Shown here: piece by piece, positions 3,507-64,000 of the stretch
Position numbering within the stretch: the stretch's first letter is position 1
How the letters are laid out: every line of letters begins with the position of its first letter
The notes under the pieces: generated by a model
Told to the model about the DNA's origin: nothing
Databases searched by the model: none
Seen by the model: only the letters and a program-made list of their open reading frames with translations
Translations under genes and position numbers: made by a program
Assembly (NCBI GenBank): GCA_958009085.1
Contig: OY253668.1
Span: 1,054,001-1,118,000 of the forward strand
From: Protoeuglena noctilucae
Lineage: Eukaryota
Reading direction: 5' to 3'
Length of the DNA stretch: 64,000 bases

Positions 3507-6500
3507 ATGAGCGCCGCCCAGTTCATTGACCAGGCGCTGAAGCGCGTGTCGGAGCTGGTGGCAGGGCGGAAGGTGACTGGATTTCAGCGGCGCGCGGGCC
3601 CGGGCGGACACGGGCCGCAACTGTTCGGCCAGGGTCCGGCCCGGACTCCCCGCGCCTCGGATGGCGGCGCAGCGCCGTCTCGTCGCGTTCGTATCCCAGA
3701 AAAGCAGGAGCTACGTGTCGCGGCCGTCCACCGGCCCCCCCGGCCCTCCCGCGCAGAACCGCGACCTGACGTTAGACATCAAGAGCCTCCAGGGCTCCAC
3801 CGCCAGCCTCTTCCCCGCGAATGGTCCCGCGGATGAGAGGGTGAGCAGGCATGCTTCCCGCAAGGGCCGCGTCCCTGGCCGGAGCCCCGCGCGCCTCGCG
3901 GCCAGGGGTCGCGCGCGCTAAGCCACGCTCAGCCCGCGCCCGCGCGCCCGACGCCCCCGTGCCTGCCCCCCGCAGGGCGTCCGCGCGATCGTCGGCATCA
4001 TGGCCGGCGTGACGGCCACGCGTTCCCCGAAGGCCGTGGCTGTGGCCATCGACTGTCTGCAGAAGCTCGTGGCCTCGGGGGTGGTGCAAGGGGCCGTCAC
4101 GTCGCTGCCCGCGCTGCCCGACAGCCTCCCCGCCGCCAAGCGTGGCGGCCCCGGGGCTCCGTCGCCGCAGTCTGTGGCCGTGGCTGCCATCGTCTCGTGC
4201 TACAACATGGGCCAAGAGGAGACGGAGCTGCAGGTCCTGAAGGCCCTGGTGAGTGGGGGAGACAAAGGGCCAAGGTTGCCAAATGGACACATTTCTATGC
4301 ATAAAGCATGGTTTGGACAGACAGCGTGGTGGGGAAGGATTACCTCGCCCTGGCAGGACACGCACAAAGCCTCTCTCCGCCCGCTCCGCCCCCACGTCAC
4401 CCCCGCCTCACCCCTCCCCCCCAGCTCTCCCTCTCCGGCTCCCACACCCTGCTGCTCCACAGCGAGGCCCTCCTCGCCGTCGTCCGCGTCTGCTTCGAGA
4501 TCGCGGTGGGCACGCGGTCCCCCACCAGCCAGGGCACGGCGCGGGCGGCCCTGGTGCAGCTCGTCACCGTGGCGTTCCGGCGCATGGAGAGCAACTCCCC
4601 GGACGTGCCCCTGGCGCCCGTCTCCGTGCGGGACCCCCTGGCCGGGGTGCAGGCGGTGCTCGACAAGGGCCCGCCGGAGGACGCGTCCGGCAACGCGCAG
4701 ATCTTCGGGTGGCTCATCAACCAGGAGCTCAAAGTCCCGCCCCTCGCGCTCGAAAACCTCCGCGCCGCCCTCGCGGCCGCGAAGGACGACGACGGCGCCC
4801 CGGCCGCGGACGACGCCCGCCCGCGGCTCGACCGGTCCCTGTCCGTCGCGCCGGCCATGGGAGCGGCGGCGGCAGCAGCTGCCGTGGCGGCGGCCCCGGG
4901 CGACCGGCCTCTGAGCCCGGCGCGCGAGGCGGAGGCCCTGGGGAGCGCGAGCCCTCCCGTGACACCGCCCGTGAGCCCGCCCGTGAGCCCGCCCCCTGCC
5001 ATGGCGGACCCCGCTGCTGCGGCTGAGGAGGAGCCCTCGCCCGCTGCCGACGATGCCGAGGCGAGCGGCGAGGAGGCTGCGGCCGAGGAGGGGGCTGCCG
5101 TGGGGGTGGAGGCCAAAGCGGAGGGGGAGGCGACTGCGACGCCCGTGGCAGCTGAGGTGGAGGGCGAGCAAGATGGGGCCGAGGGCGCAGCGGCGGAGGG
5201 AGGAGATGCGGAAGGAGAGGGCGCAGCGGAGGGAGAGACGCGAGAGGGCGATGATGAGGAGGGCGGTGGCGAAGGGGCGGAGGACGTCGATGGCAGCAGC
5301 CCTGGCCAGGACGCCCCGGGCCCCGCCGACGACGCCGCAGCCGACGCGGAGGTCGTCGCGCCGTCCTCTCCCTCCCCCGCCTCCCCCGCGCCCCTCCCCG
5401 AGCGCAGCGCCACCCCCGCCACCGAGGTGGGGGACGCGGACGGCCGCCCGTACCCCCCCGCGTCCGCCCCCGCGCGGAGCGTCTTCTGGCGCGACGCGCA
5501 CATGCTCTTCCGCGCCCTCTGCCGCCTCTCGTCCCGCCCCGTGGAGCCCGCGGGCTCGTCGACTCTCGAGGCCGCTGCCATGCGCGCCAAGGTGCTCAGC
5601 CTGGAGCTGGTGGCGCTGGTGCTGGACAACGCGCGGGCGGCGCTGCTGGGGGACGAGGCGTTTGTCGAGGCCATCAAGCAAGTGCTGCTGCTGTCCTTGG
5701 TGAGAGAGGGGGTGTGGGCGGGGGCGATGGGGTGGGTATTGATGGCGACTCGGGGCTCTCAGCAGAACGACAAAGAGCACACCAAACACAAACGCACCCT
5801 CTTTTGGTAGTACTGTAACTCACCCCTCACCTCACCACCCTCACCCCCACCCTCTGCAGCTCAAGAACTGCACCAGTGCGGTGCCCGAGGCCGTGCGCCT
5901 CTCCTGCGGCATCTTCCTGACGCTCGTGCTCCACTTCCGACGGGCGCTCAAGGCGGAGATCGGCATCTTCTACCCTATGGTGCTCCTGCGGGTCATCGAG
6001 GGCGCGGCGGGGCCCGCGGGGGTGTCCCAGGCACAGGCGAGGAGACGAGGGATGGGGGGCATGTGGCATGTGGGTGGTATGCGTGTGGTGCTGTGAATGG
6101 GCGTGGGGAGGGGAGTAAGTGCGACAGCACTGCTGCCTGCCCTCCGCCCTCGCTGTCCCTGTGTCGCAACCGCACCCTGCCACTCTGCCACCCCATCACC
6201 CCGCCACCCTCTCGCCTCTCCCCCAGGGCGCGTCCGGCACGATGTCCTTCAACCACCTGGCCGTGGCGCTGCGTTGCCTGAAGCTGGTGTGCGAGGACGG
6301 GCAGCTGCTGGTGGACCTCTTCGCCAACTACGACTGCGACTTGAACGGGTCCAACCTGTTTGAACGGTCCATCAAGGCACTGGTGAGCGCTAACAGCGAA
6401 TGAGAGGTTGGCCTGTTCGAGAGGTCCATCAAGGCACTGATGAGTGAGGGTCAATTGCAGCGAACGAGAGAGGTCCAGACCTCCATTGAGGGTCACATGA

Positions 6501-9500
6501 GCCCCGACACGCCTCACTCCCACTCCTCGACTCCCTCACCACATCTTCCACTCCCTCACCACACCCCCCACCCCAACCCCCAGGTGTCCCTCGCCTCCGG
6601 CACCACCCAGTCCCCCGGCCCCGCCACCGCCGGCCACCTCACGCCCCAGCAAGAGGCGCACGTGCGGGTGGAGTCCCTGCAGTGCCTTGTGCACGTGCAG
6701 GAGAGCCTGCTGCACTGGCACGCGGACGCGTCGGGGTTCCTGGCCGCGCCGGCCTCGCCCAAGCGCAGGGAGGGGAGCCAAGGTGAGGAGGGGTGGGGGG
6801 CACGGAGGGGACGCACAAACACCAGTGGGGGTGGGTGGTCAGGGCGTAGATGGGGGTGGGTTGGTGAGACTTGAATGCAGTGGAGGGGTGCATACGACCG
6901 CCATATGTGCTCACCTCGCTGTCACATCGCCCCGTTGCTCCCCTCTTCACCCCCCACTGCTCCCACCTCCACCCCGTCAGCTCACCCCTCCCCACCGCAC
7001 TCCCCCACCCCAACTCCACCCCCCGCAGACGACGCGGCTGACGATTCCGCCGCCAGCGACGCCGCCCCCTCCGCCTCCGCCTCCACGTCGCACCTCCCAG
7101 ACGCAGCCAATGCCAATGGCAGCACCAGCACCAACCCCAACCCCAACGGCCCCACCACCGCCGCCGCCAACGGCGCCCCGCCCCTCGCGGCCCGGCGCGC
7201 CGCCAAGGAGACGTTTGTGGAGTGCGTGGCGCTGTTCAACAAGGGCAAGACGAAGCGGGCGGTGGCGACGCTGCAGGAGGCGGGGCTGGTGGGCCCGGCC
7301 CCCGCGGACGTCGCTGCCTTCTTCAAGAGCACTCCCTCTCTCGACAAGACGGAGGTGGGCAACTACATGGGGGAGCTGGACGACCGCTGCATCGCGGCCA
7401 TGCACGCGTACGTCGACTCGTTCGACTTCGCGGGGCTGGCGTTCGACGCGGCCATCCGGGAGCTGCTGGCGGGGTTCCGGCTGCCCGGCGAGGCGCAGAA
7501 GATCGACCGAATCATGGAGAAGTTCGCGGAGCGGTACACGGTGTGCAACCCCGGGACGTTCCCGTCGGCCGACACGGCGTACGTGCTGGCGTTCAGCGTG
7601 ATCATGCTCAACACGGACGCGCACAACCCCATGGTGAAGAAGAAGATGACCAGGGAGGCGTTCATTCGGTGAGGGGGCGTGCACGGCACGCACGGTTGCC
7701 TAGCAAGGGCAAGCTTCCCCACCTGTTAGCCACCCTCCCCACCCTCACCTCTCGCGCCACCCTCCCCACCCTCCCCCTCATTCCACCCCCACCCTCACCC
7801 CCACCCTCACCCTCACTCACCTCACTCACCCCCACCCCCACCCCCAGCAACAACCGCGGCATCAGCGACGGCGCGGACCTCCCCGAGGCCTTCCTGTCCG
7901 ACATCTTCACGCGCATCACCACCGACGAGATTCGCATGAGGGGCGACGCGCCGCCCCCGCTCCCGCCGGACGCCAAGGGCGGGAAGGGGAAGGGGGCACC
8001 CGCACCCGCACCCGCCGCCGCCGACCCCTTCGCCGCCCTCATGCTCGCCAAGTCAGGCGAGTGCGGCTGGGGTGGGGGGGGGTTGTGAGGTGTTGCTATG
8101 CAAGATGGGGACAAGCATGGAACCAACACTGACTCGCCCACTTACACCCTGCTACCATCCTGACCCTCACCCTCACCTTCACCCTCACCCCCATACCCCA
8201 CCATCCCCCCAGGCCCGACGGAGGCGGAGGACGCGGAGGTGGACCGCTTCCACGCCGCCCTCCGCGAGCAGGCCCGCTCCTCCGCCTTCCAGGACGTGAC
8301 CGACCCCGACGCGGTTCGGCCGATGGTGGCGGCCGTGTGGGAGCCGCAGCTGGAGGCATTGGCGGGGACCTTCAAGGCACACGACGCCGTGGCGGTGGTG
8401 GACCTGTGTTTGACCGGGCTGCGGCTCATGGCCATGCTGGCGTGCCAGACGGCGCTGCCCGCCGTGCGCGTGCGGGTGGTGGTGGTCGTGGCGCAGCTCA
8501 CCAGCCTGGTGAGGGCGTGGGGTGGGGTGGGGTGTCAGTGGTCGGGTGCAAGTGCGCAGCATGGCGGACTGTCTCACTCCCAATGTCACTCTCACTCTTA
8601 CTCTCACCCACACTCCCACTCTCCCCCCCACTCTCACTCTCCCCCCCACTCTCACCTCCACCCCTCTTTCCCCCCCCAGGACGACCCCCCCAAGATCCAG
8701 GCCAACACTCTCTCACTCTCACCCCCACCCTCCCCTCCCCCCCAGGACGACCCCCCCAAGATCCAGGCCAAGTCGACGGCGGCCATCCGCGTCCTCCTCC
8801 GCATCGCCGAGGACAACGGCAGCTTCCTCGAAGAAGACTCCTGGTCCATCATCCTGCAGTGCGTCTCACGACTCGAGGCACTGCTGCAGGTCGTGCAGGG
8901 GCTGCCCACCGACGCGGCGCTGTTCGGCGAGGGGGACGCGCCAACGCAGAAGGCCCAGCCGCAGGCGGCGAGGCTCGCGCGCAGCCGCACCGCGCAGCCC
9001 GCCCGGGGCACCCCGGACCGGGGGGGCGCGGGGACGCCCGCGGGCGGCGCGGCTGGCACCGGCACCAGCACAGGCACCCCCGGGTCGGCCCGTCGCGGGT
9101 GGGACCACCTGGACGCGGTCTCCCAGGCGCAGCAGAACCACCCGGAGCGCCGGCTGGTGCGGGCGGCGAGCAACGAGGTGTCGAGCTCCGGGCAGAGCCG
9201 CGCGCTGTCCCCCCGCCCCAGCGTGGCCGTCGGGGGTCCCCTGTCGGTGGGCAACGCCTCGTTTGTGGTGCCGGACGCCAAGGACCTGTCCGCGCCCACC
9301 CAGATGGCGCTGCAGGTGAGGGGAAGGGGTGGGTGGGGGTATGTGGGGGCGGAGTGTTGCAGCGGAGTCGCTCTCACTGCCTCTTTCTTTATGTGTGCGC
9401 CCTCGCTCTTCCTGTTATCGCCCTCACTGCCACCCCCACTGCCACCCTCACCCTCACCACTGCCCTCACTACCTCCCTCACCCTCACCCCCACTACTACC

Positions 9501-14336: not shown

Positions 14337-15691
14337 ATGTCACTTCGGAGGCTCAGCGCCCTTCGCGGGGCCCTGTCGGGCCACCTGTTCCGGGGAACAG
14401 GTCAGCCGCGCCCCGCCCCTTCCCACATCTACGTTCCTGTCCCGGGCCTCGGCCGGAGGGGCCTAGCCCCGCCCGGGTCCCCTGCCCTGCCCTGCTGACG
14501 CGATCCGGGGCTCGGATGCGCTTCCAGAGGGTCACCGATCGCTTTTCCTCCCGCACTCTGTCGCTGGACGCGGCCGGCAGGGCCCTCGCGTGACCCCGGC
14601 CGCGTTCAAGACCGAGGGCGGGAGCGCCGGTGCCCTTTTGGCACCCCCGCGACGGCAGTCCCATCTCTTAGCTCGAGCTTTGTCGCGCGGGCGCCTCCTG
14701 GCGGCAGGGCCCGCCGGCGGTCTCGGGCAGGTGCTCCCAGCAGGCTTGACGGGAACCCGGCCTCCCTGCGCGCAGGCGAGGGGGCTGCGCCCGCGGTGGC
14801 TGGTTTCCACAGCTCTCCGTCGACATCGGCCAAGGATAAGGCGTCCTTGGCGGAGGCCTCGAGCATCATTCAGCAGAAAATTGCCCAGCTGGGTTCGGGG
14901 GCCAAGCTCGCCGAAGTGGGCAGGTGCGACGCCCGGAGCGGGGTCCTATGCTTCCCACGACGCCGTCTGCGCCGCGCTCCGCGACCGGGCCGGCCCCCGC
15001 GCGCGTCTGCCCCGCAACGGGCACGGGGTTGTCAGTTCCGCAGCCCGGCGCGCAGCTCGGGGGAGCGCCGGGATCCCGGGCGGCTCTTTGTACGCTAAAC
15101 TGCGCATCGGCCGGTGCACTCGGGGCCAGGGGCGGCCTGGGACGCCGGCAGGGGCCCGCGCACCCGAGTCCTTCTTCCCGCCCGATGCGCGCAGGGTGCT
15201 GACCATCGGCGATGGTATTGCGCGCATCTATGGCTTGTCGAAGGTGAAGGCCGGCGAGCTGGTCGAGTTCTCGGCGGGGGTCCAGGGCATGGCGCTGAAC
15301 CTGGAGGAGGACAACGTGGGTGTGGTGGTCTTCGGTTCGGACAGGCGAGCCGCGGACGCGCGCAGGGGTGCATCGGCGCTGCGGCAGCACCGCCCGGCGG
15401 CCCCGGCGAGCGCCGGCGTCCCGCGCCCGCAGGGAGATCAAGGAGGGCGACATCGTGAAGCGCACGCAGCGCATCGTGGACGTGCCCGTGGGCGAGGGCC
15501 TCCTCGGCCGCGTGGTGGATGGCCTCGGGCAGCCGATCGACGGCGCCGGCCCCATCCAGGCCAAGGAGCGCCGCCGGGTGGAGCTGAAGGCCCCGGGCAT
15601 CATCGCGCGCAAGTCCGTGCACGAGCCGCTCATGACGGGCCTCAAGTGCGTCGACTCGCTGGTGCCCATCGGCCGCGGGCAGCGTGAGCTC

Positions 15692-15726
<35 letters not shown>

Positions 15727-16894
15727 GGCGGTCGACACCATCCTCCACCAGAAGAACACGGACGTGTTCTGCATCTACGTCGCCGTCGGGCAGAAGCGCT
15801 CCACCGTCGCCAACCTCGTCCGCATTCTCCGCGAGAACGGCGCCGACAAGTACTCGATCATCGTGGCCGCCACCGCCTCCGACCCGGCCCCGCTGCAGTT
15901 CCTGGCCCCCTACTCCGGGTGCGCCATGGGCGAGTGGTTCCGCGACAACGGCAAGCACGCCCTCATCATCTACGACGACCTCTCCAAGCAGGCCGTCGCC
16001 TACCGCCAGATGTCCCTCCTCCTCCGCCGCCCCCCCGGCCGCGAGGCCTACCCCGGCGACGTCTTCTACCTCCACTCGCGCCTCCTCGAGCGCGCCGCCA
16101 AGGCGAGCCAGCAGCCGCGGGAGCCAGGGGCGTGGCGTGCGGTTCCACGCGCCGCTGTCGCTCCTTGCGTCCTTGCGCCCACCCCGCCGCCTATGTGTCC
16201 TCCGCGCCCCTGCCTGCCCCGGCCCCGCGCCCGTGCCGCTCTCCGCTTCGCCGACGACCCCGCCGCCCCTCCCTTCCGCCCCCCGCAGATGTCGGACGAG
16301 ATGGGCGCGGGCTCCCTGACGGCCCTGCCGGTGATCGAGACGCAGGCGGGTGACGTGTCCGCGTACATCCCCACCAACCTTATCTCCATCACGGACGGCC
16401 AGATCTTCCTCGAGACGGAGCTCTTCTACAAGGGCGTGCGCCCGGCCATCAACGTCGGCCTGAGCGTGTCGCGCGTGGGGTCGGCCGCGCAGGTCAAGGC
16501 CATGAAGCAGGTCGCGGGCACGATGAAGCTGGAGCTGGCGCAGTACCGTGAGGTGGCGGCGTTCGCGCAGTTCGGGTCCGACCTGGACGAGGCCACGCAG
16601 AAGCTGCTCAACCGCGGCGCGCGCCTGACCGAGGTGCTCAAGCAGGACCAGTACAGCCCCATGGCGATGGAGAGCATGGTCGTGCTGCTCTTCGGCGCCA
16701 CGCGGGGGTACCTCGACGGCCTTCCCGTCTCGGCCGTGCGCACGTTCGAGTCCAAGGTGATGGCTGACCCCGGCCTCAAGCCCCTCATGGAGACCATCAG
16801 CAAGGAGAAGGTCATCTCCCCCGCCACGGACAAGGCCCTGCACGAGCGCATGGCCGACATCGTGTCCCAGGTCAAGACCACCCTCAAGCTCTGA
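14337..16894 (+). CDS. ATP1: Mitochondrial F1-ATP synthase subunit alpha, nucleus-encoded, with targeting presequence; at least 5 exons
   Basis: Exon 1 (14337-14400) encodes the presequence [20 protein letters not shown]. Later exons give [12 protein letters not shown], the P-loop [52 protein letters not shown] and [25 protein letters not shown] and [11 protein letters not shown] are mitochondrial-type. Introns 15345-15432 and 16103-16288 are GC-AG. Confidence 0.96.
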
Positions 16895-44134: not shown

Positions 44135-45575
44135 ATGGCCCTCTCGTCGCTGTCGCGGGGCCTACGGGCTCTCGTCCCCTTCTCTCGCCTGGTACGCCGC
44201 ATCGCGCGTGTGCCGTGCACCGCCCGCGACCGATTCGACTTCATTATGCGACATACCTCCTCTCCGGCCCCCTCGCAGCTGCACTCGAGCCCGTATGGGC
44301 TCAAGGCCGTGCCCGAGCAGGCGCAGCAGGATATGCGCGTGGGCTCGACCGCGCCGGTCTCCGAGCTGCTCCTGTCGAAGGTACGTTTCGATGACGCGCA
44401 GAGTCAGCGCTCTTGGGCCCAAAGATTGGCTCCCAGCGCGCGGCCGGGCGCCCTAACCCTCCCCCCCTGGGTCCCCCGGGGCGCCCCAACCGCGGCCGCG
44501 CCTGACCCGCTGCCTGCAGAGGAATGTCGGTATGCACCTTTACGTGCACGACGACGCCACGATGATGGACGCGGTCCGCAAGGCGAGTCGGAGCCGGCCG
44601 GTCTCGAAGCCGGCCGGTCTTGCGGCTCGGGGGGCCCTTGTAGCCCCCGACGAGCGCTCATGCGGCAGCGATTGGGACTCGAAGCCTTGATTGTGGCGCG
44701 GTCGGCGCGCGGGGGACCGCACCGGCTTCGCTTGGCCGCGGATGGACGTAACGACCTTTCCAAACGCCGCCCGATGCGGCTGTGGGCGGCGCCTGTATTG
44801 CGCCGTGTCCGCATCCCGGGCGGAGAGCACGAGAGACCAGGCTCTCCCCCTGGGGACCCGCCCCGGGGCCGGGATAGGACACGCCTGGAGTTGCGAACAC
44901 GACCTCGCGCCTGCAAGCATCGGGCGTGTATCTCGGCCACTCTTGCAGTTGACCAGGACAGGTTCGGGCGCCCGCTGATTGTCGACCGCCCGACCGCGCC
45001 CCTCCCGCCCGCAGATGGCCGAGAACAAGGTTGGATGCCTGCTGGTCGTCAACCACCCGAACGGCCAGGCCTGGGACCAGGACGCCGGCGACATCGTGGG
45101 CATCGTGAGCGAGCGCGACTACCTGACCAAGGTGGCCCTGGTGGGGAGGAAGTCGGACACGACGCGCGTCGCGGAGATCATGACGCCGTCCAGCAAGGCG
45201 AGGCTGGGTGGCGTGGCGTGTGTCGAGATGCGGCGGGTGCTGGTCGCCTGACCGTGCGCGTCGTGACGATCATCGCAGATCAAGACCGTGTCGCCCCACC
45301 ACAACGTCGTGGACGCCATGGTGCTCATGACGTCGCACAACATCCGCCACCTCCCCGTCATCGACAAGGGCAACTACATGGGCATGGTGTCGATCCGGGA
45401 CGTCGTCGAGACGGTCGTCAAGAACGCCAAGGCGAGCGCGACGCCGCACTGGCTGCTCGAGCTGCAGATGGGCAATGGCAGGGAGAGCGCGGCCATCTCG
45501 CGTCGCCTGTCCTCCGTACCCTGCCCGCAGAGGGACGTGGAGAGCATGGCAGGCTACATTTCCGGATCGTATTAG
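44135..45575 (+). CDS. CBS-pair domain protein, CBSX3-like, probably mitochondrial; 6 exons
   Basis: Presequence MALSSLSRGLRALVPFSRL. CBS motifs DAVRK/MAENKVGCLLVV, GIVSERDYLTKV, VAEIMTP and LMTSHNIRHLPVID...GMVSIRDVV, ending YISGSY*. Confidence 0.9.
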
Positions 45576-46111: not shown

Positions 46112-49100
46112 ATGCTAGCGTGAGTGGATTGTATCGCTTGCATCGGCGCTGCCGAATCTGAGTTTCGCTGCTCAGATGCAGGACGCCCCGTCCCCAACGC
46201 GTCTCGCCTCCTCTCCGCAGCGTTGGTGCGCTGGTGACCCTTCTGCTGCTGATGCAAGGTAGGTTCGTCGAACTCACGCACTCCCATGGCGCTGGTAAGG
46301 CGCGGGTCCTGCCAGGGATGGCCGGCACGCACGGCGTCCGCGAGGCCATCCTTGATTATCACTTCCCCGACGGCGACAGCGACGGTGAGTCGCGGCATCA
46401 CGCTGTCTGACATGTCGCACGCGCGGCAGGGATGCCAACGACGCGAGTCTTCCACCGATGCAGTGGCGGGCCCCTTCCTGGGCAAGCACGTCGTCTCGCT
46501 GGGGTCCTTTCCCGGCCACGTGGGCGCGCTCGGCGTCGCGGTGCTTCCGGGAGAGGGCACCGGGATGGATTTGATGGCCGTATGGGCCGCGCCCGCCACG
46601 ACTGATGCTGCCGCTCCCATGCCCGTGCCCGCCTCGCGCCATCTCTCCGGCGACCAAGGCGATGACTTCTACCCCGCCTCCTCCGGCATCGTGCCCGTGC
46701 CCGCGGAGTCCCTGGAGGCGACGGTCCGCGGGGCCCCGGGGCCGATGCTCGTGGAGTTCTTCCACCCGCAATGCCCCCACTGCGTCGCCTTCCGCGATGA
46801 CTTCCAGAGCGTCGCGCGGGAGCTGCGGGGATCCGTGCGCGTCGCGTCCGTCGACTGCATGGCGGGCGGCCCCGCCTGCTTGGAGCAGGGCATTCGGTCC
46901 TTCCCGACCCTGCGGTTGTACCGCCTGACGGGTGGCGATGGCGGGGCTGTGCAGCACGACACCTTCGAGGGGGCGCGGCAGGTGGACGGCATCGTGACGT
47001 GGGTGCGGTCTTTGCAAGCCGCTGGAGAGGCCGAGGCAGATGTGCCGACCCCGCCACGCCCACCCGAGGCCACCGGCACCGACATGACTGGCACTGACGC
47101 GACCGCGGCAGGGACGCTCGCTGCAGAGACGAAGGCTCCCGAGGACAGCGCGCAGGCCCCGGCGACGGCCCAGGCCACCGAGGTGGCAGTCGTCCCTCTC
47201 GTGGACCCCACCGTCGCCTCCACTCCCACGGCAGGTGACAGGCCGGCGTCCTGACGCTGTTCCGTCGAGCCGCGCCGCTGGTCTGCTCTGAGGCCAGCAC
47301 CGCCCTCGCAGCTTGCTCCGTCAGAGTCTTAGCAGCGAGTGGCTGACCATCACAGGTGTGATGCTGAGCTGCGCACTGCTTTCTCTGCACGCAGCACCCG
47401 ATGGCCCGGAGAACTGCGGCATGGGGCGGTCTTCGTACGACGGCCCCACGTCGCTGTCGTGGGCGACTTACCGGGACGGGAGGTGGCTGGTGAAGGACGG
47501 CCCCGTGCCGGGTCTGGGGGAGGAGGGCGCAACGCTGCGGTCAGAGACGCCCGTCCTCTGCAGCAACGCGACGGCCGACGACCCCTTCGTCAGCATGATG
47601 TTTGCGGTCACGCGGGTGGGGCCCCAGGGACCCCAAGTCGTCGCCATCGCGGCGCAGGTGTACCACCCGGGGAGCAAGGCGAGCCACGCTGCGGTTGGAA
47701 TGCTTGCTGCTGAGGTTGCTCGCTGTTTGGGTTGCTCTTTGCTTGGGCCACTGGCTGCTTGGGTCGCTGGCTGTTTGGGTCGCTTGCTGCTTGGGTCGCT
47801 GGCTGCTTGGGCTGAGCTGGCAGGGCGGCGATGTGATGAGGTGTACAACTGAGCCGGTGGTGGTCGGCCATTGCAGACGTGGTCGCTTCCCAAAATCGCC
47901 TTCGGGTCGTTACGCCGCAAGGCCGAGGACATGGGTGTGCGCGTCAGCAGCTGCATGTGGGAGTTGAGCGACCGCATGGTGGCGTTTGGTGCGGCCACGC
48001 TGACACAGGGTGCGGTGTTGCGTCTGTGCCCTGCCAGGTGCCCGTTCAATTGCAGATGTGTTTCAAATACCCCCCCCCCTGCAGTGGGCAAGGTGGACGA
48101 CTGTATCACGTGCTACGACGAGGTCGCCCAGCCCAGCCCCACACCCTGCGATGCGGCAGAGGGGTGCGCTGGGTCGCCCACGCCAATGGCGACGAGTCGA
48201 CCGACCCCCGACACTTCCAAGATCGTCGTCAGCTACGCCCCCATCGCACGGGCCAAGCAAGACGGCGCGCGGGACGCCGAGGTGACGCCTGCACGACCAT
48301 CGTCCGCGCCCATTACCAGTGGTCATGGCTCGTAACCTGCCCGCCTCGACTGCTGCCGTCGGTGACAGAGCACTCCACACGTACCATCGAGCCTCTCTTC
48401 TCCTCAGACGATCGCGCGGGGCCTCAGTTTCCGTCGGGAGGCCGTGTATGTGGGAAAGGCCGCGGTGGAGAACCCCGTGACGATGCCTTACTCCGCGATG
48501 CTAGGGGGACACGGAGGGGGCGCGGGGCCGCTGTGGGCGTCGCTGCTGGCCAGCCGCGCCGAGGCGGGCAATGCGGACTTCAGCGCCCGGCCCGTCGAGG
48601 AGAGCGGGAGCTGCTTTACGTGGCTCTTCCGGCCGTCCCCGGACAGCAGCGGTGAGTATCTTGGCAGATGTAGTGACACTTGCTGCAATACCATCTACGT
48701 TGCTGCCTGCGCCACCGCTCGCCGCTCGTCGTCACCGCCACTCTTGTCCTATCTCAATGCAGAGGAGCCGGGTTCGGCCCAGGTGGACCTCGGCTGCCCC
48801 AGCCGCATCCTCGCTGGCCTGCTCACCAACCGCCACAACGTGATTGCCGCCTACCTGCACCCGCACAGGCGAGTCGCGTCCCACAGCCAGTGCATGTTTT
48901 GCATGCCACTCGTCGCTGCGTCGCTTCTAGCCAATGCTTATCTTCCGACTGGTACCGTGTTTGCCCCCGCAGGGCCCAGCAGGTTCACGTGGCGGCGCTG
49001 GACAGGGAGCGCGCCAACGCGGAGCACTGCAAGAAGGTCAGCGACCGGTGGTGCTACAACTGGCTGCGCACCAACAACCTGGCGCAACTGGAGGTGAGTC

Positions 49101-50083: not shown

Positions 50084-53000
50084 TCAACCAAGCAGGGAGC
50101 GCAGCTCGTGCACGTCAGGCCTCTCCCCGGGGCTCTCTCTGGCGCAGCGGGCGAGGAAGGAAGCGAGCGTGGGTCCCTGGTACCCAGGGTGCGCGCCCGC
50201 CACGGCGTTCAGGGCCGCGCTAAGCGCCCACATCTCCGCCGCCACGCTCCCACCCGCCTCGTCGACGGCGTCGAAAGGCCCAGCAAGGGAGTCCGGGAGC
50301 GATGAGACGTGCAAGCGACTCTGCGGTGCGGGGGCAGCGCCGCGGGGCCCGTGGGTCGCTGTTGCCATCTCGCGCGGTGGCACGGCGGGTGCCACGCCGG
50401 CCCCGACCAGGCACTCCAGAGAGGCGATGGCCTCGGGGGCCAGGCCGTCGACGCGGACGCCACCGAACGACACGAAGAGCTCGCATGCGGGCAGGGCAGA
50501 GCCCAAGGGGAGGAGGCGGACGGCGGCCACGGTGCCCGCCTGGGCGAAGGCACGGGGGTCTCCCTCCCAGGGCAGACCCTCGAAGCTGCGGTGCGAGGAC
50601 AGGGCGCACGTGCTGGCGGGGCCGGTCGGGGAGCCTGCGCCGTCACTGGGGCTCTTGCCCTGCGTTGATGTTTGAGGAATGGCCGGGTCGCCGCGGTCGG
50701 CGCTGTGCCGCGAGGTGGCGGGGGAGCGAGAGAGGGCGGGGGTGTCTGGGAATACCGCCACGCAGCTCAGGGGGCACGACGCGAGTGACGCGGCCACGTG
50801 GGGTGTCCCATGGGACCTGCAGGGTGGGAGAGGGAGAGCCAGTGAGTGCCAACTGGTCAGCAGGTAGGCAAGGTGAAGAGCGAGCTGTATATCAAAGCCA
50901 AGCGTTGCTTTCCCTCCAAACAGTGCGCATGCTCACGTGATGCGCGAGTGGTGGTAGAGGACCCGGTTGGCGAGCTGCACGGCCATGCTTTGCAGGAAAG
51001 CGTCCGAGGCGGCCGTGGAAGTCGACAGGACTGCCTCCGCCAGCTCTTCGACGGTGAAGGGCACCGCCTCGGTGACGAGCGCGACGCCCCTGACACCGCA
51101 TGCTGACAGCGGGCAGACGCCGTGGCAGCGGACCAAGCCAAGGTCACTGCGAGGGACAGCGAGATCTGCTCTTGCACCAGTCCAGACGGCTGGCACCCTC
51201 CCATGCCTCCAAAGCACCCTCCTGCATCCCTCGCTGCCTATCGCAGGCGCGGCGTGCATGCCGGCCCCACCTGTGGCTCTGCTCCGCGAGACGGGCGCAG
51301 GCGGCCAGGGCCGCGGCCTCCGCTGCCCGGAACTCCGCGGTCCGCGCGGCGCCGGAGATGCCGACCAGGGCGATCGACACGGGCTCCTGATCAATGTCGC
51401 GCCCGGGCCAGGTGAGTCGCCCGTCCAACAGCTGCGTGGCGACACAAGAGGGGCAGATGGTGGCACGGAGCGCAGTTGCGCGAAGAGCGGGTGAAAGCAA
51501 CCCCAGCTGGCCCAGCGCCTTACCAGGAATGCCCCGCACTCCCTCGGTGCCCGTCCGCTTGCAGAGACTTGAAGCGTGCCCCCAGGAATGCGCATGCCTG
51601 CAGAAAGAGGGAGAGAGATGCCCTGAGCGTGCTGTTCGGTCCAATCAGCGCTGTGCATACTTCGCCCGCCAGCCCCACAGACAGACAGCGACACTCACGC
51701 AGGACGAGTGACCGTGCGTCTGGGTCCAGCTGAGTCAGGTCCACGGCGTCCCACGCCGACTCTGGCGTCTCTGGCGAAGCCTTGGCCACCGGGCTGAGCA
51801 TATCGTTGCCTGCCCCTGCCTCCCTCAGCGCCATCTCGGCCATCCTAGGAGCATGGCAAGGGGCTTTACGCTCTTATCACCACCACGCTGCTACGAAGAG
51901 AATGCATTGGCACTACACGCAGGCATCCTCACCGGTCTTGCACGAACTTGAGGGCCATGAGGTTGGCGCGGAGGGACGCCAGCCGTCGCAGCGACGGCTG
52001 CCGCGACGGCCCCCGCAGCGCCTGGGCGGCAAACGCGTCGCGAGCGTCGTCGTCACGCATCGGCCACGCGCCCTTCTCGTCGTCCTCCGACTCTGTCAAG
52101 AGCGCGTGGCCAGACGGCAGGGCCGTCTCATACGCCTCGGCTCCCTGGTCGTCCCATCTCACGGCCTCGGACATGGACATGTGGAGGTCCTCAAAGACAG
52201 CGCCACGCAGCATCAACTGCTGCTGCGAGGCGGTCGCGCCGAGCCTCCCCCGGCTGATGCCCCTGCAGGCGCGGAGAACACACACGCGTGTGTGTGAAGC
52301 GTGCGCGCCATGGGTGCCCGCATGGCAGATCAAACGCCACCCTCGCCTGTGCACGGGCGCCCGGGCTGCGGCGGTGCCCGTCTCCGCACGCCCCGACACG
52401 CTGGCCACCAGCGGGGGCCTCGTGAACGCCTGGGCGGCATTGCCCGTGCCAGCCTCCGAGCTGCTGGGACCCATGGGCGCCTGCCTCGTGCCCGGCCGCG
52501 ACACCTCCTCCGCGTCGCCCGAGAGCGCAAGGCCCGTCAGCGCAGGCGCCACGGCGCCCAGCGAAGTGTCGGCCGATGCTTCGCTGTCCGACAGCTCCGG
52601 CACCCACCCCTGCCCCCGCTGCATGCCGCGAGACACGAAGAGAGTGAAGCCCCGGGTCCCGGCGGCCGCCAGGTAGCCCCGGCCGCTGCCGTCCTCCGAG
52701 CACCCCAGCTCCCGCACGCCACCCATGTCCCACGCGCCCTCCGCCGACCCACTCCACCCGCTCGACCCCGATCCCCGAGGCAGCGCCCCCTCGCCCTCCC
52801 CGCTCCCCTCCCGCGGCGCACCCTCGCCCGCGACCCGCCTGCGCTGCGACCGGTCCACCCCCTGCCCCGCCCCAGCCCCGCGCTCCAGCCGCCCCGCCTT
52901 GCGCGCCCCAGGAGGGGAGATCGTGTGCTCCGTCCCCGACCCGGCAGACGAGTCCACGCTCGGCCGGCTCGGCATGCTCGACAGCGCACCGCCGGACCGC

Positions 53001-55301
53001 CCCGGCCGGTCCACCACGACCCTCCAGCAGGGGGCGGGCGGCAGCCCCGCCGCCGTCTGCACGAGGCTGCGGTAGAAGGGCTGGGCGACGCGGGGCAGCG
53101 GGCGACGGAGTGCAGGTCGAGCGCGGGGAGGGGATACCCCGGGAGGCCACAGAACTCGTGGGTGGCGTCCCAGGCCCCGTCCGCTGGGGGATCCAGGAGG
53201 TCGGAGACGGTGGCGTCGGGGACGGGCTTGGGGCGCGCGGCGGCGTCGGGGGTCGCGGGGTCGGCGGGGCGCTGCGGGGCGACGGGCTCGCCCGGGGTGA
53301 GGCGGGAGGCGGCGGCGGAGGCGACGAGGTGCTGGTGGAGGGAGAGGAGCTCGAGGTGGAGGCGGTAGGCGTGGGGGCCGACGGCGCCGTTGTCGAGCTG
53401 GCGGGCTGCCTGGAATCGCGAGAGGAGGATGGCGCGGAGGGACGCCGCTGCCTCGGCTGCCGTGGGGCGGGCGTCCGGATGGAGCGAGAGGCACTGCCGG
53501 ATGAGGTCGCGCTGCGGGCACTGGGGAGGTTTCGGTTCAATGCCTGGCAACGCCTGCGAGTTGAGAGTCGCAGGGAGCGGGTCGGGCAGGCGAACGAGTA
53601 AGGGACGGGGTGAGACACGGATGTTCTCACCAGTTCCGGCGACCCTGCGTCCTCTGGCACTGCCGGGGCATACCCCTTGCGGAGCATGACTGCGATGGCC
53701 TGGCACCACTTGTGGTACGACCCCACGCGGCGGAGGGAGTGCCAGGGCACTTGCCCGGTGGCCATCTCCAGCAGACAGCACCCCAGGGCCCAGACGTCAG
53801 CCTTGGGACCGACGGGGGCAAGTCGGGACTTGGGGTCGATCTGCTCGATGGGCATGTACACGGGGGTGCCGGCGCCGGGGCTCACGACGTTGTCCGCGAA
53901 GTGCGCGTGCGACTCGGCGATCGCTATCATGGCCCCTGCGGCGAGGGCAGCGGCGCGGAAGATGCTTGCATCAAAGCGATGTGAGCGAAGCCGTCCGATG
54001 GACACGCACGGGTGCCTTGTAAGCGCGTCAGCAGCTCACCGAAGTCCGCGAGGACGGCGAAAGGGAACGAAGAGTAGTGGTTGAGGAGGAGGTTCTGGGG
54101 CTTGACGTCCCTGCGGTGCATGGGAAGCAACCATAAGCCGTAAGCAGCAACCAGCGGGCGTGCGACGTGCAGGCTTTCAATCGTGTCATTGGAGTGTTAA
54201 ATGCCAGTGTCGGTGCGCACCGGTGGACGTGGCCGTGGACGTCGTGGAGCTCCGCGAGGGCGAGGGCAAGGCCCACACCAATGGCGAGGGTCCACGTCTC
54301 GGGGATGCCCTCGAGTGGCCGGGGGAGGCGCTTCTGCGGGTGCGACCGGATCCAGGCAGATCAGCTGCACTCCCTCAGACATGCGGCTAGACAGATACGC
54401 TTGCGTATGCCACATATGCATATGGGCACTCGCCAGGAGGCCGCCGAGGGAGTCGGGGAGCAGCTCCATCACGATGGCCGGGTGCAGCGTTACGTCTCCG
54501 TTCGCGTCGACCTGCGAGGGGCGCAGGGGGCGAGCGTGACTCTCCATGCATGCGCCGTGGCTGTGGGGACCGCAGTTGGGTGCCATGCCCCACAAGCGCC
54601 TCACCTGGGGCAACAGACTCCAGCCGACCACCTCGCAGACCCGCTGCCCCGAGTCGGCGCGCCCCACGAGCAGGCTGACCTCGAACTCGCGCTGCAAGGC
54701 TTTGGCGGTGGCCTGGTTCCCCGACGGGCTTGCGAAGATTTTCACCGCGACGGGCACCTCTTCCAGCGTTTCCGACGCTGTGCTGGGAATTGTAGAGACG
54801 AGACACTCCGGCGGGACGCGTCGCCATGTGGCTCTTCACACAGCTTGACTCAGACCGCCCAGGCCAATGAGTTCGCCCAGGGTTATGGAGCTGGGCTCGA
54901 TGAACGCCTCCATCTCAGAGTCGGTGGGGTTGAAGCCGAGTATCTCTGCAATGAGAGTGAATGTGCGAGCTGAAGCGAGCGTCGCATGCGTTGCCAAGCA
55001 GGAACGCACTTGACACATCTCCCGCAGCCTCTGCACCCTAGCCGAGCAGCTCAGAGCCCGCGAGACCAACCGCACCTGTCAGCCTCTCGTCCTCTGCAGA
55101 GGAGCGGGCCGAATGCACGGCCCCGCGGGCGTGGTGACGATCAACAGGCATGGTGCGCAGAGTTGTGTCCGTCCCACGCGTGCCGACGTGCGCGAGAAGC
55201 CCCGCGGGAGGTGGTGCGTCTCTCGCATGGTCTTGAACTCCGCGGACAGACGTACCCGGGACCGCCGTCCCGGCATTGCGGGACTGGTTTGGCGCGTCCA
55301 T
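50084..55301 (-). CDS. Ser/Thr (TKL/MAP3K-like) kinase fused through a long linker to a C-terminal pseudokinase; multi-exon, one apparent frame break near 53100
   Basis: Kinase 1: IGLGGLS, VAVK, REFE, IVMEL, HRDVKPQN, LADFG, GTPVYMPIE, ADVWALG and CLSLHPDARP. Intron 51932-51845 joins ...FVQDR to MAEMAL in frame. Second domain: VGLAGEV, LVRCHGVC, LVTE, AVQLANRVLYHH, LAPE, AEMWAL and CARESPGERP. Confidence 0.75.
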
Positions 55302-55460
55302 CCGCGGGGCGACAAGGTTAGCGCGCAATCGCCTCTGCCCGCGTTTACCGACCGCCCTCCCCGCGGTCTATAAGCGGACTTGTCGTGACGCATTCGGTTC
55401 GCTGTGGTTTGAATTTGTTTTTGCCAGCAAACGCTGTCAGACTACTGCCTGCGCTCGTCC

Positions 55461-58400: not shown

Positions 58401-61400
58401 GTGCCGTGCAACGTGCTCAGTGTCTCACCACAGCGAGTACGACCGAGTCGATGACCTCGGACATTCGGAAGTGCGATGCGACGCTGAGCAGCGACTGGAG
58501 GCCCGCGAGTGCCCTGGCAGACGTGGGGGCGTCGTGGGCCGTCTCCAGGATCACCAGCAGCGCCGAGGCGGCCGGTCCCCACATAAAGGACAGCATGAGG
58601 TCGATGAAGGGGCAGTCGGCGGGGCTGAGGCGCAGGGTCTGCCCCCGCAGGTGCCGCGAGTCCTGGCGTATGTGCAGCAGCTGGGCGTAGGTCAGGCCGT
58701 CCACGTCCTCCGACATCCTCATCTCGTTTGAGCGGATGTTGTGGTAGATGCGCTTGAGCATGTCCACGGGGAGGTCCTCGCCCTTGTCCTTGTCGTTCTC
58801 CTTGTTTATGCCCCTCAGGTTCCTCACGAACATGTCCTCCGTCATGCGCTTGTGGTCGGCCACTTGCGACGAGTGCTGGTCCGTGTGGAGCATGATCATC
58901 GCGTAGGTGAACACCTGGATCACGTCCGTGTGCTTGGCCCAGGACGACAGCGAACAGCTCTCGTAGTACCACTGGGCAAACGCCTCGGTCATGCGAAGGA
59001 TCTTCTGGGACTCTCCGGGGATGCGGAAGTTGTCCAACAAGAGTCGCAGAGCGTCGTCCACCTGCATGTCCGTGAAGTCCAGCGTCCGGATGAAGTCCCT
59101 GCGAGGAGCGGCGTGTCCGTGGCGGGTTGCAGGTGTGACTACGCTCGGGGTGAGCCAGCTGCAACACGCGCGGCACAGGGCGGGGTGCTGAGGGCGCCGG
59201 TGCGGTAACAGCAGGACGCCTCATGTTGCCAGTGGGGCGCTGGACATTTTCAGGTGCCTCCCAGGTGCCTCCCAGCTACCCAAGCGCTGCCACGGTGCAG
59301 TGGCCTCGCTCGCACGCTCTCTCACTTGAGCACCACCTGGTTGAAGTCCGAGTGGTCCCCCAGGATCTCCCCCTTGGCACTCGAGAAGAGGCCGGGGCTG
59401 TGCCGCAGGAACATGGCGACGGCCTTGGTGTCGAGAGGAGTGGGGAGCAGGCCCAGGCCCTGAAGGTACTCGTAGGCCTTGGATGGCGTCTGCATAGCAC
59501 GATAGATACGCAGGGCAGTCAGTGCAGTTGGGGCAGTGAGGGCATCACGCTGCATCACAGAAAGCGCCAGCCCCCTCCACGATGCCATGAGCGGGGTGTG
59601 TGCACTCTCAGGCAAGAGCACCATCGGACACCCAGCGCGCCAAAGGCCGGCCACCGGTCGCAAGTGCTTGCAGGGGGCGCCTCGCCGCACCCAACGCGCG
59701 CGATCCGTGCCCATCTCCCGCACCTTGTTGAAGTACTCGGCCGCCACTTGCAGAATCTGCTTGCACGTCTTCTCCAAAAGGCATCCCATCGCCAGGTTTG
59801 CCTGGCGAGACCCCTGGTCCAACGATGGATCCACCAATGCCACGTTGGTCCACCCGCGCCCCTCCAGCTGACTCCATATGTCCACGTAAGACACCCGCCC
59901 CTCGCCCGCGGCCGCGTCCAGCGCAGCGCCCGCCAGAGCCGCCGCGATCGTGCCGTTCGCCCCGTCGCCCGCCTCCCCGTTCCCCGCGGCGCCCTGCCCG
60001 CCCTGCCCGTCCCGCCCCTGCCCCGGCGCCTTGGGCAGCCCGCTCCCGGCAGCCTGGAGGAGTCGCCGCAGGGCGGGCATGCGTGCCGCGTACTCGAACG
60101 ACGGCCGCGCCCCCGCCGTGCAAGCCGCGTCCAGGACCTGCAGCATGTTGGCGAAGGCCTCCATGCACAGGCGCTGGACGTTGGTCACGGCCTCGAACTT
60201 GCCGCGCTTCTGCACCACGCGGGACAGCAGGCTGCAGATCTCCTCGAACAGGTTGGACCTCTCGATGCGGCAGTCCAGCGACGCGTAGATGTCTGCGGGA
60301 GGCGCTTGGGTTCCGATCATTCGCAGCGCTTAGCACGGATCGTAGCCCTCCCAAAGCACGCTGTGCCGTGTGTGCAGCACGACACTTGCACGATGCATGC
60401 ACACTAGCCACAAGCACCAGCTTGCCTGTGAGGAACTGCGGCTGGAAGATGAAGTCGAGGAGTCCCTCGAGCGCCGCCTCCTGCGCCTCCCTGGGCAGCT
60501 CCGGGTCCCTGCCCTCCCCTAGCCGCAGAAGGAACTCCCGCACAAACGCGTCCAGCTGGAGCAGCATGAAGCGGCCCATCTGGCTGTACAGAGTGAGCAT
60601 CAAGTTGGTCACGAAGGGCAGGAAGACGTACCCGGGCCACGCAGCCACCTGCGCGCAGGGTCGTGCAGGGGTTGGCCGGAAATGTAGGGGCATGCACATG
60701 GGCGTTGCATGGCAGGGAGGGCGCGGGACGCCTCAACATGCGAACATGCGTGCATCGCTCTCGCCTCGAGGAGCCGGTGGAAGAGGACCCCCGTGACCCA
60801 CTCGATGATGTTGAGGGACCGCGCCAGCACTGACCCCCCGACCTTGAGAGCGGTGTCCAGAAGTTCCAGCACCAGGCGCACCTTGTCGGTGCTGCTGGCC
60901 GCCTGCTGGTCCACTGCGGGGAGGGACGAGGGCGGTGAGCCGTCAGCCACCCCCTCGGCTTCCCCGGAGCCCGGCCCATGCGAGCATGCGCGTGCTTCCG
61001 GCACCCACCGGGCAAGAGGTCCAAGAGGGACTCCAGGACCGCCAGGGCCGTGCCCAGGGCGTCTTCCGCGGACGCGCCGGCCCCCTCCGACGACGCGGCG
61101 GCCTGCGCGATGCGCGTGAAGACGGTGTGGATGGTGGCCGACATCATCGACGCGGACACATGCCGCAGAAGGGCGCTCGACTCGGTGCCACCGCTGTCGG
61201 ACGCCTTCTCCCCGACCAGGTACGCCAGCTGGATGATGTGAGCGATTCTCTCGCTGCTCAGGAAGCTCCCCGCGCGGCACTGGATGCACGCTCCCAGCGC
61301 CTGCGTGCGCCGGGTCGGTTTGCGAGGGTCCAGTCCGGTGTCCCACCCATGCACGGAGAAACGTGCCAAAGACCGACTGGAGCATTGATGCAGAGGCCCT

Positions 61401-61959
61401 CCAGCACGCGTGGCATGCCGTAATGCGCAGTGCACCCACGCACCTCCAGGATCTGCGCCGTCACCCTGTCGTTCTCCTCAGCCCCCGCGGGCACGAAGCG
61501 CGTCCACATGACGCACTGCGCGACGTGGTTGATCACGTCCGGGGCCTGCTCGCTGGCGGGGTCGATGAAACCCAGCGTCAACAGGCGGTGCACTGCCTGC
61601 ACCGCCGCAGCGGTGATCAGCCCGCTGACGTCCTTGGCCCGAGCGACGTTCAGGAACGGCTCAAAGCACTGAAGCGGCTGCTGGTAGCACACGCTCGGCT
61701 GCGGGAGGGGAAGGCGGGCGGGGAGGTGCGGGCGAGCTCAGCGCACCGCACCGACACCACGCTGCCTCCGCTCCCGGCGCGCGTGGCGCACCTCCTGGAA
61801 CACCATTCGCCGCAGCTCGCTCAGGGATATTATCAGTGGGTCCTGGGTGTCCTGTCGGCGCTGGAAGCGCTGGTTCTTTCGCATCTCGGCAATGACCACC
61901 GCGACCTCCCCCGCCACGACCAGCGGCATGGCCGCCTGGGAGATCTCCGCCGCTGCCAT
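55461..61959 (-). CDS. GBF1/GNOM-type large Sec7 ARF guanine nucleotide exchange factor; about 20 exons
   Basis: N-terminal GEVAVVIAEMRKN and EPFLNVARAKDVSGLIT, HUS box DIYASLDCRIERSNLFEE, Sec7 FRIPGESQKILRMTEAFA and YAMIMLHTDQH, C-terminal VRNAALSSLQR and EVPDILRNLLLVLSSKGIL..LWQITW. Confidence 0.93.
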
Positions 61960-62781: not shown

Positions 62782-64000
62782 AGTCCGGCCTCGTGCGGGC
62801 GCACGGGCTGGCAGGGGTCGGGCCTGGAGCTTTGAGCGCTGCGCGTGCTGGTCCCCCGCCTCTTGGGGCTGGGGGCTGGACTTGCACCGGGAACAACAGC
62901 AACAGCCGGACATTGCTTGATCCCGTGTCTCTGGAGGGTGCTTGGGGCATCCCGCGCCGCCCCGGCGTAGCAGCGGCAGACAACGTGGGTGGGACCCTCT
63001 GGGGCGCCCGCGTCCCACGGCCGGACTCGCCGCCTTGCATCGCAGTTTCAGGAAGGGGACGAGCCCCTTTCATGGACCTCGGGCTCCGGGAGGGCAGCCG
63101 TGCGAACGCCAGCTCAAGGTGATGGAGACTGGAGCACCGCGCCTGCCGCTGCGTCCCCGATGGCTGGCGTCTGACCATCTCCTCGTATTTCGTTGGTCGT
63201 GCAGGCGTGAGGGACGGCGGGGGAACGTGCGGGGGTCCCTGGACGTCTGTGGAAGCGTCGCGGAGGATCCGTCCCTCGCGGCAAGCCCCGCCGCGTCCCT
63301 GGGCTCCGTCTCGACGGTGCAACAGGGCATCGACTGGGTTTCTCTTGGGAAGGTGCTGATTGCGGACGAGGACGGGGGCCTTTCGGACAGCAGCGTCCAG
63401 CAAGTGCTGCAACTTTTGGACGGACACACTGCGGATGAGATTGAGGCAGGCGAGGGGCCGCGCGATATGTCGCAAATGCGCCAAACTACACTCCACTGGC
63501 GTCCGCACCGCTCGGCGCCGCGATCGCGCCCCAGGACGGGGCACGACGGGAGCTGGGGGGCCGCTGCTGCCGCGACGTGCCCGCGCGCCCGCCTCGTCCC
63601 GCAGCCACGTGTATGGCGCTGGAGTACGCGCGGCGTGAGGAAGACTTGCGTTCGGGCAGGTCTGAGATGCCCCGCGCGGCATCGTCGGGCGTGAAGGACG
63701 CCGCGGGGCGGCCTCCCCTGTCGCCCTACGGGGCACAGGACGCGGGGCCCGTCCAGGGAGGCGGCGGGGGCGCGGCCGGCACGCCCGGAGGGGCCACGAA
63801 AGACGCGCAGCAGCGCCGCGCGGGCGGCTGGGTGATTGGCCCCCCGCGGCCCGTGTCGGACGGGGTGTCGGTCACGGCCGACGGCAGCATGCGCCACGAG
63901 GTGACCGGCGGCGGTGCCGCTGCCCCCGCGCGGCCGTCTGAGCGCCGGCGGTGGCTCACTCTGACTCCATGCCGCGCCCGCAGGTGACCCCGCCCCGGGA
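62782..64000 (+). CDS. Hypothetical protein (partial, multi-exon, divergent from the GBF gene)
   Basis: In-phase exons at about 62782-63118, 63205-63449 and from 63605 (QVLQLLDGHTADEIEA/ATCMALEYARREEDLR). No recognisable domain; both ends are uncertain. Confidence 0.4.

Follow-up and report, generated by a model that had tools for sequence, protein, structure and literature searches.

In animals and plants, introns that begin with GC and end with AG (GC-AG introns) match the rest of the 5' splice-site (donor) consensus better than GT introns do, and GCAAG is the usual form of the GC donor outside the DNA described here. GC-AG introns make up 0.3-2% of introns in plants and animals, 14-17% in the pelagophyte Aureococcus anophagefferens and about 14% in Pelagomonas calceolata, against 0.32% in the low-GC Aureoumbra (bioRxiv 10.1101/2024.10.30.620910). 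In the haptophyte Emiliania huxleyi, a study of 535 introns in 68 loci gives 56-64% GC donors, verified by reverse-transcription PCR and attributed to a 65% GC genome (Feldmesser et al. 2014, PMC4028052), and a PhycoCosm paper gives about 55% (PMC7779022). The E. huxleyi genome is 65.7% GC, within a range of 58.7-73.3% for published haptophyte genomes. The pelagophyte share is likewise attributed to high GC content (bioRxiv 10.1101/2024.10.30.620910), and the Pelagomonas genome paper places GC donors at introner elements. Here we describe a 64-kb stretch of contig OY253668.1 (positions 1,054,001 to 1,118,000; hereafter the window, whose own coordinates are used throughout) in which between 19 and 27 of 131 introns, about 15-20%, are GC-AG introns. 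The introns are removed from RNA at GC, and C at donor position +2 depends on the surrounding donor sequence. The original prediction, made from the letters of the window, had placed GC-AG introns far above the usual level of about 1%, which agrees with 19-27 of 131 here and 0.3-2% in plants and animals (bioRxiv 10.1101/2024.10.30.620910).

The window has features in common with each of the described systems. Like E. huxleyi, it combines a marine source, GC-rich DNA, many short introns, GC donors far above about 1% and a conserved AG acceptor. The marine source, the 68% GC, the intron density and the tandem repeats found in the introns would fit a simple explanation, namely that the window belongs to the published E. 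huxleyi case, which we regard as improbable. GC is the majority donor there (55-64%) but a minority here, well short of half: the GC share is 17-24% among predicted introns and 5/15 among the listed RNA joints described below, from a stretch chosen for its GC donors, vs 56-64% in E. huxleyi. There is also no named E. huxleyi protein among the 120 ATP synthase alpha (ATP1) matches listed, which is weak evidence on this point. With the pelagophytes the window shares high GC, a marine algal setting and nearly the same GC-AG proportion, in the mid-teens (19-27 of 131). Pelagophyte genes, however, are intron-poor, at 0.1-1.5 introns each, and part of those introns are introner elements; the window carries about 7 per gene, with 130 introns spread over about 18 genes. 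Prasinoderma coloniale, with 69.8% GC and one gene per 3.5 kb, differs in having 2.2 exons per gene. As the source of the window, E. huxleyi is thus disfavoured by donor ratio, the pelagophytes by intron density and P. coloniale by exon number; the source may be a GC-rich haptophyte or an alga of the green lineage. The animal and plant GC-AG introns share with those of the window the compensation rule, by which a GC donor fits the U1 small nuclear RNA (snRNA) consensus perfectly at all its other positions, as well as membership of the U2 type and the AG acceptor. They differ in frequency, which is 10-20 times higher here, and at position +3, which is G in the window (GCGAG), following its own GTGAG consensus.

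The original prediction had named 19 introns with a GCGAG donor preceded by AG or TG. GCGAG stands at the start of all 19 positions, after AG at 17 and after TG at 2 (40378 and 54433, both on the minus strand), and every modelled intron among them (19/19) ends in CAG. The G+C content is 68% throughout the window. The heptamer AGGCGAG occurs 37 times on the two strands, compared with 16.9 +- 4.5 in 100 dinucleotide-preserving shuffles, none of which reached 37, an excess accounted for by the 17 AG-type sites. An ATCCTT-like donor marks U12-type introns; all 19 donors are instead GCGAG followed by any base. Splicing from GC to AG is established by RNA, protein or homology at 10 of these sites: five by RNA contigs, two by transcript-derived protein and three by gapless homology. 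Two further sites are supported by protein-family motifs and seven by ab initio prediction only. The 19 introns are listed below, with a slash marking splice junctions in donor and protein sequences; X1, X3 and X4 are RNA sequencing runs, and P0005 and P0122 are proteins, all introduced after the list. Lengths are in nucleotides (nt).

6037..6226, plus strand: GC-AG intron (cag/GCGAGG..CCCCAG) in a BIG-like ARF-GEF gene; predicted, ab initio only; the flanking exons match Pfam HUS 73-120 and 122-161, with 15 junction residues unaligned, leaving the precise donor unfixed; retention of the intron would place an in-frame stop 57 nt in.
8057..8212, plus strand: GC-AG intron (cag/GCGAGT) in the BIG-like ARF-GEF gene; predicted, ab initio only; in-frame stop 29 nt in if retained.
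15345..15432, plus strand: GC-AG intron in the mitochondrial ATP synthase alpha gene (..FGSD/R/EIKEGD..); absent from P0005 and P0122; gapless against 6tmh_A.
16103..16288, plus strand: GC-AG intron in the ATP synthase alpha gene (..LLERAAK/MSDEMG..); absent from P0005 and P0122; gapless alignment to the PDB structure; in frame and stop-free.
27258..27399, plus strand: probable GC-AG intron in a KIF9-type kinesin gene (..FKFDGILEGASQ/DTVYDQ..); motif-level support, with Pfam Kinesin from position 54; not predicted by the gene finder.
43431..43517, plus strand: GC-AG intron in a TBCC gene (..AANQ/IRIH..); Pfam TBCC positions 58 and 59 at the exon ends; also predicted ab initio.
44583..45014, plus strand: GC-AG intron in a CBS-domain gene; RNA joint 44580/45013 in X1, X3 and X4.
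45198..45278, plus strand: GC-AG intron in the CBS-domain gene; RNA joint 45195/45277 in X1, X3 and X4.
45432..45530, plus strand: GC-AG intron in the CBS-domain gene, near its 3' end; RNA joint 45429/45529 in X1, X3 and X4.
47679..47876, plus strand: GC-AG intron in a thioredoxin-domain gene; RNA joint 47676/47875 in X1, X3 and X4; frame kept; holds a 16-nt tandem repeat at 47701-47812.
48869..48972, plus strand: GC-AG intron in the thioredoxin-domain gene; RNA joint 48865/48970 in X1, X3 and X4; frame kept.
63450..63604, plus strand: GC-AG intron in an unnamed gene; predicted, ab initio only; upstream exon with weak coding signal.
24385..24539, minus strand: GC-AG intron in a coiled-coil gene; predicted, ab initio only; in-frame stop 78 nt in if retained.
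31335..31497, minus strand: GC-AG intron in an oxysterol-binding protein gene (..VVGSIK/LNGRPV..); gapless against 4 homologues.
32520..32678, minus strand: GC-AG intron in the oxysterol-binding protein gene (..GVNLTK/ISMPVE..); gapless in 9/9 homologues; Pfam Oxysterol_BP position 17 opens the downstream exon.
40136..40378, minus strand: probable GC-AG intron (ctg/GCGAGT) in the pore region of a cyclic-nucleotide-binding K+ channel gene (..SVYW/AITTVATVGFGD); Pfam Ion_trans_2 32-78 opens the downstream exon; predicted ab initio.
52263..52346, minus strand: GC-AG intron of 84 nt in a kinase-like gene, in frame and stop-free; predicted, ab initio only; in-frame coding score -0.24 per nt (strongly negative).
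54334..54433, minus strand: GC-AG intron (ctg/GCGAGT) in the kinase-like gene; predicted, ab initio only.
60649..60764, minus strand: GC-AG intron in a second Sec7-family gene; predicted, ab initio only.

RNA evidence was drawn from four marine metatranscriptome runs of a single study, picked by a search with window positions 42001-52000. The runs contain 49-59% of the sampled words of that segment, as expected with exons present and introns absent. Contigs of three of the RNA runs (X1, X3 and X4) were aligned to positions 40301-60300, and nearly all of the aligned RNA contigs were at least 99% identical to the window (13/14, 21/22 and 17/17). The intended DNA control, X5, yielded only 13 aligned pieces of about 24 nt, which gives no usable cover and no control. 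Within the interval 42 joints were found, 15 of which were listed; all joint counts given here rest on those 15. Ten are GT..AG joints. In the remaining five, 2-4 letters were ambiguous and the printed ends read AG..GC or CA..CG; each resolves to one GY..AG cut only, which is GC..AG, with no GT..AG cut possible. These five GC..AG joints, with donors at 44583, 45198, 45432, 47679 and 48869, were seen in X1, X3 and X4 alike. In the thioredoxin-domain gene the reading frame is continuous over six consecutive introns, two of them GC-AG. The donors at 40378, 43431, 52346 and 54433 also lie within the RNA-covered stretch and are absent among the 15 of 42 joints listed, which neither confirms nor refutes them. 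A separate X3 contig (44647-45042) runs unspliced from within the 432-nt GC-AG intron over its acceptor, at a word depth of 9 compared with 31.9 for the spliced X3 contig; it reflects either intron retention or pre-mRNA.

The large exon of the ATP synthase alpha gene, used as a search query, returned P0005, a protein of 500 residues with 100% identity to the query, encoded on a 1806-nt Logan contig; a near-twin, P0122, comes from JGI/IMG contigs. Mapped back to the window, P0005 precisely omits 15345-15432 and 16103-16288, plus a GT intron at 14924. Its alignment with the solved ATP synthase alpha chain 6tmh_A shows no gap at either the 15345 or the 16103 junction, and positions 154 and 159 of the ATP-synt_ab profile lie on either side of 16103. 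Together with the RNA contigs, this brings the flagged introns whose removal is seen at the RNA level to 7/19 (5 by RNA contigs, 2 by transcript-derived proteins). The nearest named ATP1 among the matches listed is that of a pedinophyte green alga, whose identity is 89% across the exon and 82.5% across 492 residues. A search of metagenome contigs with P0005 found relatives of 57-75% identity only, none of them close.

Profile and structure comparisons locate further junctions. A Pfam run on 127 predicted exons matched TBCC positions 3-58 up to the residue that directly precedes 43431, and positions 59-110 from the residue that directly follows the intron. After 32678 (OSBP, the oxysterol-binding protein) and 40378 (Ion_trans_2), too, the profile match opens with the first residue of the next exon, and after 27258 the kinesin match begins a few residues at most from the junction. 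In an alignment of 10 OSBP sequences, the junction at 32678 is gapless in 9/9 homologues, and that at 31497 is gapless against the closest homologue, P0126, and against P0199, P0209 and P0139. The exon downstream of 27258 encodes a KIF9-type motor from its first residues (best-scoring chain 7n61_0X); the exon upstream has no kinesin match in the PDB, and its kinesin character shows only in the short F-x-F-D..SQ family motif at its end. A homologue search with the Sec7 exon at 58429-59097, which bears on the donors at 60764 and 60425, gave no match at E <= 1e-20.

Two of the GC-AG introns, 16103-16288, whose spliced form is proven, and the predicted 52263-52346, are in frame and free of stops, and public contiguous open reading frames (ORFs) cross both: P0006 (479 residues, 15 contigs) over 16103, and P0001/P0123 (361 residues, 16 contigs) over 52346. 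Since the C at +2 of both introns is encoded in these read-through ORFs from 15 and 16 contigs, it is not an assembly error. A homologue search with the exon at 52349-53065 gave one contiguous ORF (P0001), which reads through the intron and is silent on splicing.

Introns across the whole window were counted with a hidden-Markov gene finder using codon-position Markov chains and one donor matrix common to GT and GC, with equal prior for T and C at +2, trained at first on exons proven by RNA or homology and afterwards on the exons that it had itself predicted. It predicted 130 introns in about 18 genes, with 104 GT and 26 GC donors, or 131 introns with 27 GC donors on adding 27258. It recovered 13/15 RNA-proven introns and 18/19 of the originally named donors, missing 27258. 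With priors for C between 0.1 and 0.9, the number of GC donors was 22-31 of 130 (17-24%). A model restricted to GT donors recovered 8/15 of the RNA-proven introns and lost 7/15. A version with flat donor scores was dropped for over-prediction, as it called 206 introns and recovered 4/15 of the RNA-proven ones. The rough count behind the original prediction, about 140 introns of which about 1 in 8 are GC-AG, was therefore of the right order (130-131 introns, 19-27 GC). Its remark that GT donors vary is also borne out: among the 104 predicted GT donors, positions +3 to +5 are GAG in 54, GCG in 29, GAC in 8, ACG in 4, GGG in 3 and other triplets in 6. GCGAG accounts for 18 of the 26 predicted GC donors, and the other eight stand in other contexts.

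The distribution of GC and GT donors over donor contexts in the predicted set is as follows.

AG upstream and GAG downstream: 17 GC, 14 GT.
GAG downstream, no AG upstream: 2 GC, 40 GT.
GCG downstream: 1 GC, 29 GT.

Among donors with GAG at +3 to +5, the upstream AG thus has a strong effect (17 GC/14 GT vs 2 GC/40 GT; Fisher p = 1.5e-6). Outside the full context, AG/GYGAG, there are 90 GT donors vs at most 10 GC donors, most of those GC donors being doubtful. C is essentially confined to GAG contexts, as the original prediction had it, and the rule is sharper than was then stated, in that AG at -2/-1 is also required. The same pattern appears among the listed RNA joints, the only sample free of both motif-search and matrix-predictor bias: AG upstream together with GAG downstream is found in 5/5 GC donors vs 1/10 GT donors (Fisher p = 0.002). 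In the full context, the share of C at +2 is 17/31 (55%), close to the proportion C/(C+T) of 0.64 inside introns, so that C looks nearly unselected there. Only 14/104 GT donors are fully consensus; most have one mismatch, at -2, at +4 (GTGCG) or at +5 (GTGAC). On a donor consensus score over 6 positions, the flagged GC donors reach 5-6 and GT donors mostly 4, a comparison that is partly circular. The motif alone is not sufficient to make a donor, as AG/GCGAG is present and unused in 5 predicted sense exons, while AG/GTGAG is so in none. One of these unused copies, at 56517-56523 on the minus strand (56521), lies inside an exon covered by an unbroken RNA contig (56366-56725).

The introns begin with GC and end with AG, are removed from RNA, match U1 better than the GT donors do and have donors unlike those of the U12 type. 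They are probably ordinary GC-AG introns of the major (U2-type) spliceosome, made common by strong GC pressure under a U1 pairing threshold. U at +2 pairs with an A in the 5' end of U1 snRNA, and C there is a mismatch. A change from T to C at +2 would thus cost one base pair with U1. Recognition would act as a pairing threshold allowing about one mismatch, and C at +2 would be tolerated only where all other donor positions are paired (AG/GCGAG), a context in which C is about as common as T. GT donors would use up the single tolerated mismatch elsewhere, at -2, +4 or +5. Mutation or gene-conversion pressure towards G+C would turn T into C wherever a site can bear the change. Both parts of this account, the threshold for pairing with U1 and mutation or gene conversion biased towards GC as the driver, are inferred from the pattern of donors. 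Among the mechanisms that the original prediction had put forward, substitution biased towards GC, with a normal spliceosome, is the best fit, given the stricter context of the GC donors. A stronger form of this proposal, in which C at +2 is almost neutral provided that all seven remaining donor positions are paired with U1, and not otherwise, and in which the genome would amount to a naturally occurring titration of the pairing threshold for U1 at the 5' splice site, each donor lying one mismatch from perfect (-2, +2, +4 or +5), is doubtful and offered tentatively.

The other mechanism to be weighed is a changed reader of the 5' splice site (for example in the U1 5' end, the U6 ACAGAGA box or the protein U1C), able to accept C at +2 or to pair with it, which would make GC a second canonical class. 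The 10-20-fold higher frequency of GC donors than the 0.3-2% of plants and animals, and the parity of C with T in the full context, would be expected of such a reader. If C at +2 were paired, however, GC donors should tolerate the mismatches that GT donors do, yet GCGCG occurs once vs 29 for GTGCG, and GC donors with no upstream AG number 2 vs 40. The stricter context of GC than of GT donors is expected if C at +2 still mismatches U1 and unexpected if U1 pairs with it. The unused AG/GCGAG copies in 5 predicted sense exons, including the RNA-covered one at 56521, when set against none for AG/GTGAG, also argue against a changed reader. We therefore favour an unchanged spliceosome, on the grounds that GC donors are less tolerant of other mismatches, and consider an altered snRNA or U1C unlikely; the pattern does not require an altered snRNA. 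A lineage-specific change in U1, U6 or U1C may have lowered the cost of C at +2.

Several points weigh against our preferred explanation of GC pressure under a U1 pairing threshold. A predictor that scores donors with a matrix can itself create a negative association between donor positions, so that the window-wide context contrast is inflated to an unknown degree, and the original list of 19 was built by motif search, which makes its uniformity partly circular. Seven of the 19 flagged introns, like most of the GT ones, are known from prediction only. Eight predicted GC donors fall outside GCGAG, among them 60425 and 1330, which are possibly real. The data come from a single 64-kb window, and the RNA stretches were picked for their richness in flagged donors. 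An Rfam scan of the window gave no match, so no snRNA gene lies within it.

That the GC donors are misplaced, with nearby GT donors used in their stead or the C an assembly error, is very improbable: although seven sites rest on prediction and a GT lies within 45 nt of every flagged site, none of these nearby GTs has the donor consensus, the five RNA joints admit no GT..AG cut, the junctions in ATP1, TBCC and OSBP are placed with single-residue precision, ORFs from 15 and 16 contigs carry the C of 16103 and 52346, and the use of nearby GT donors, which the original prediction had named as the outcome that would overturn it, is ruled out at 10 sites by RNA, transcript-derived protein and gapless homology.

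Beyond the originally named introns, the gene finder proposed a further candidate.

60293..60425, minus strand: candidate GC-AG intron (cag/GCAAGC); ab initio only.

This donor and another predicted one at 1330 (GCACG) could mark real introns, and the GCAAG donor, if real, is an exception to the fixed GCGAG rule. Three other predicted GC donors were set aside. The 45-nt intron at 50321-50365 (donor 50365) is refuted by an unbroken RNA contig (49762-50814). The 45-nt intron at 8701-8745 lies within a 66-nt tandem duplication and is best read as a model artefact. The donor at 43840 also looks like a model artefact, one that wrongly fuses the TBCC and CBS genes.

The window contains two large Sec7-family ARF-GEF genes, at 3507-12816 on the plus strand and 55461-61959 on the minus strand. 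The first is BIG-like, with DCB, HUS, Sec7 and HDS regions; the second has a Sec7 domain and a weak HUS match. Tandem repeats lie fully within predicted introns at 9/13 loci. Most are C/A-rich on the sense strand, with units of 6-30 nt, and one of them fills the GC-AG intron at 47679.

6530-6571, 7764-7846, 8572-8771, 9421-9561, 12495-12551, 28288-28351, 29700-29843, 47701-47812 and 55760-55828: tandem repeats within predicted introns.

Two irregularities were noted among the aligned contigs. Contigs of X1 and X5 both diverge from the window after 43770, near the 3' end of the TBCC gene, and continue with an identical 30 letters, which may reflect a paralogue or structural variant. One X3 contig connects 40942 to 59926 with 20 other letters between and is probably a chimeric assembly.

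The novelty of frequent GC-AG introns that the original prediction had implied is not supported, E. huxleyi and the pelagophytes being published cases of the phenomenon. A literature search for GC-AG introns in green algae or haptophytes found no further algal case. No paper was found that states the restriction to AG/GCGAG; the donor logos of PMC4028052 lay outside that search, and we make no claim that the restriction is unpublished. The window is thus a further instance of a published phenomenon, of modest interest beyond annotation, and it opens no new question. For annotation it matters that gene predictors and ORF callers that expect GT will mis-model such genomes, as seen in P0006 and P0001, which cross GC-AG introns. 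The window provides a clean, small example of 5' splice-site compensation under GC pressure, and adds to the known cases an intron-rich organism with an intermediate GC-AG share, between the pelagophytes and E. huxleyi.

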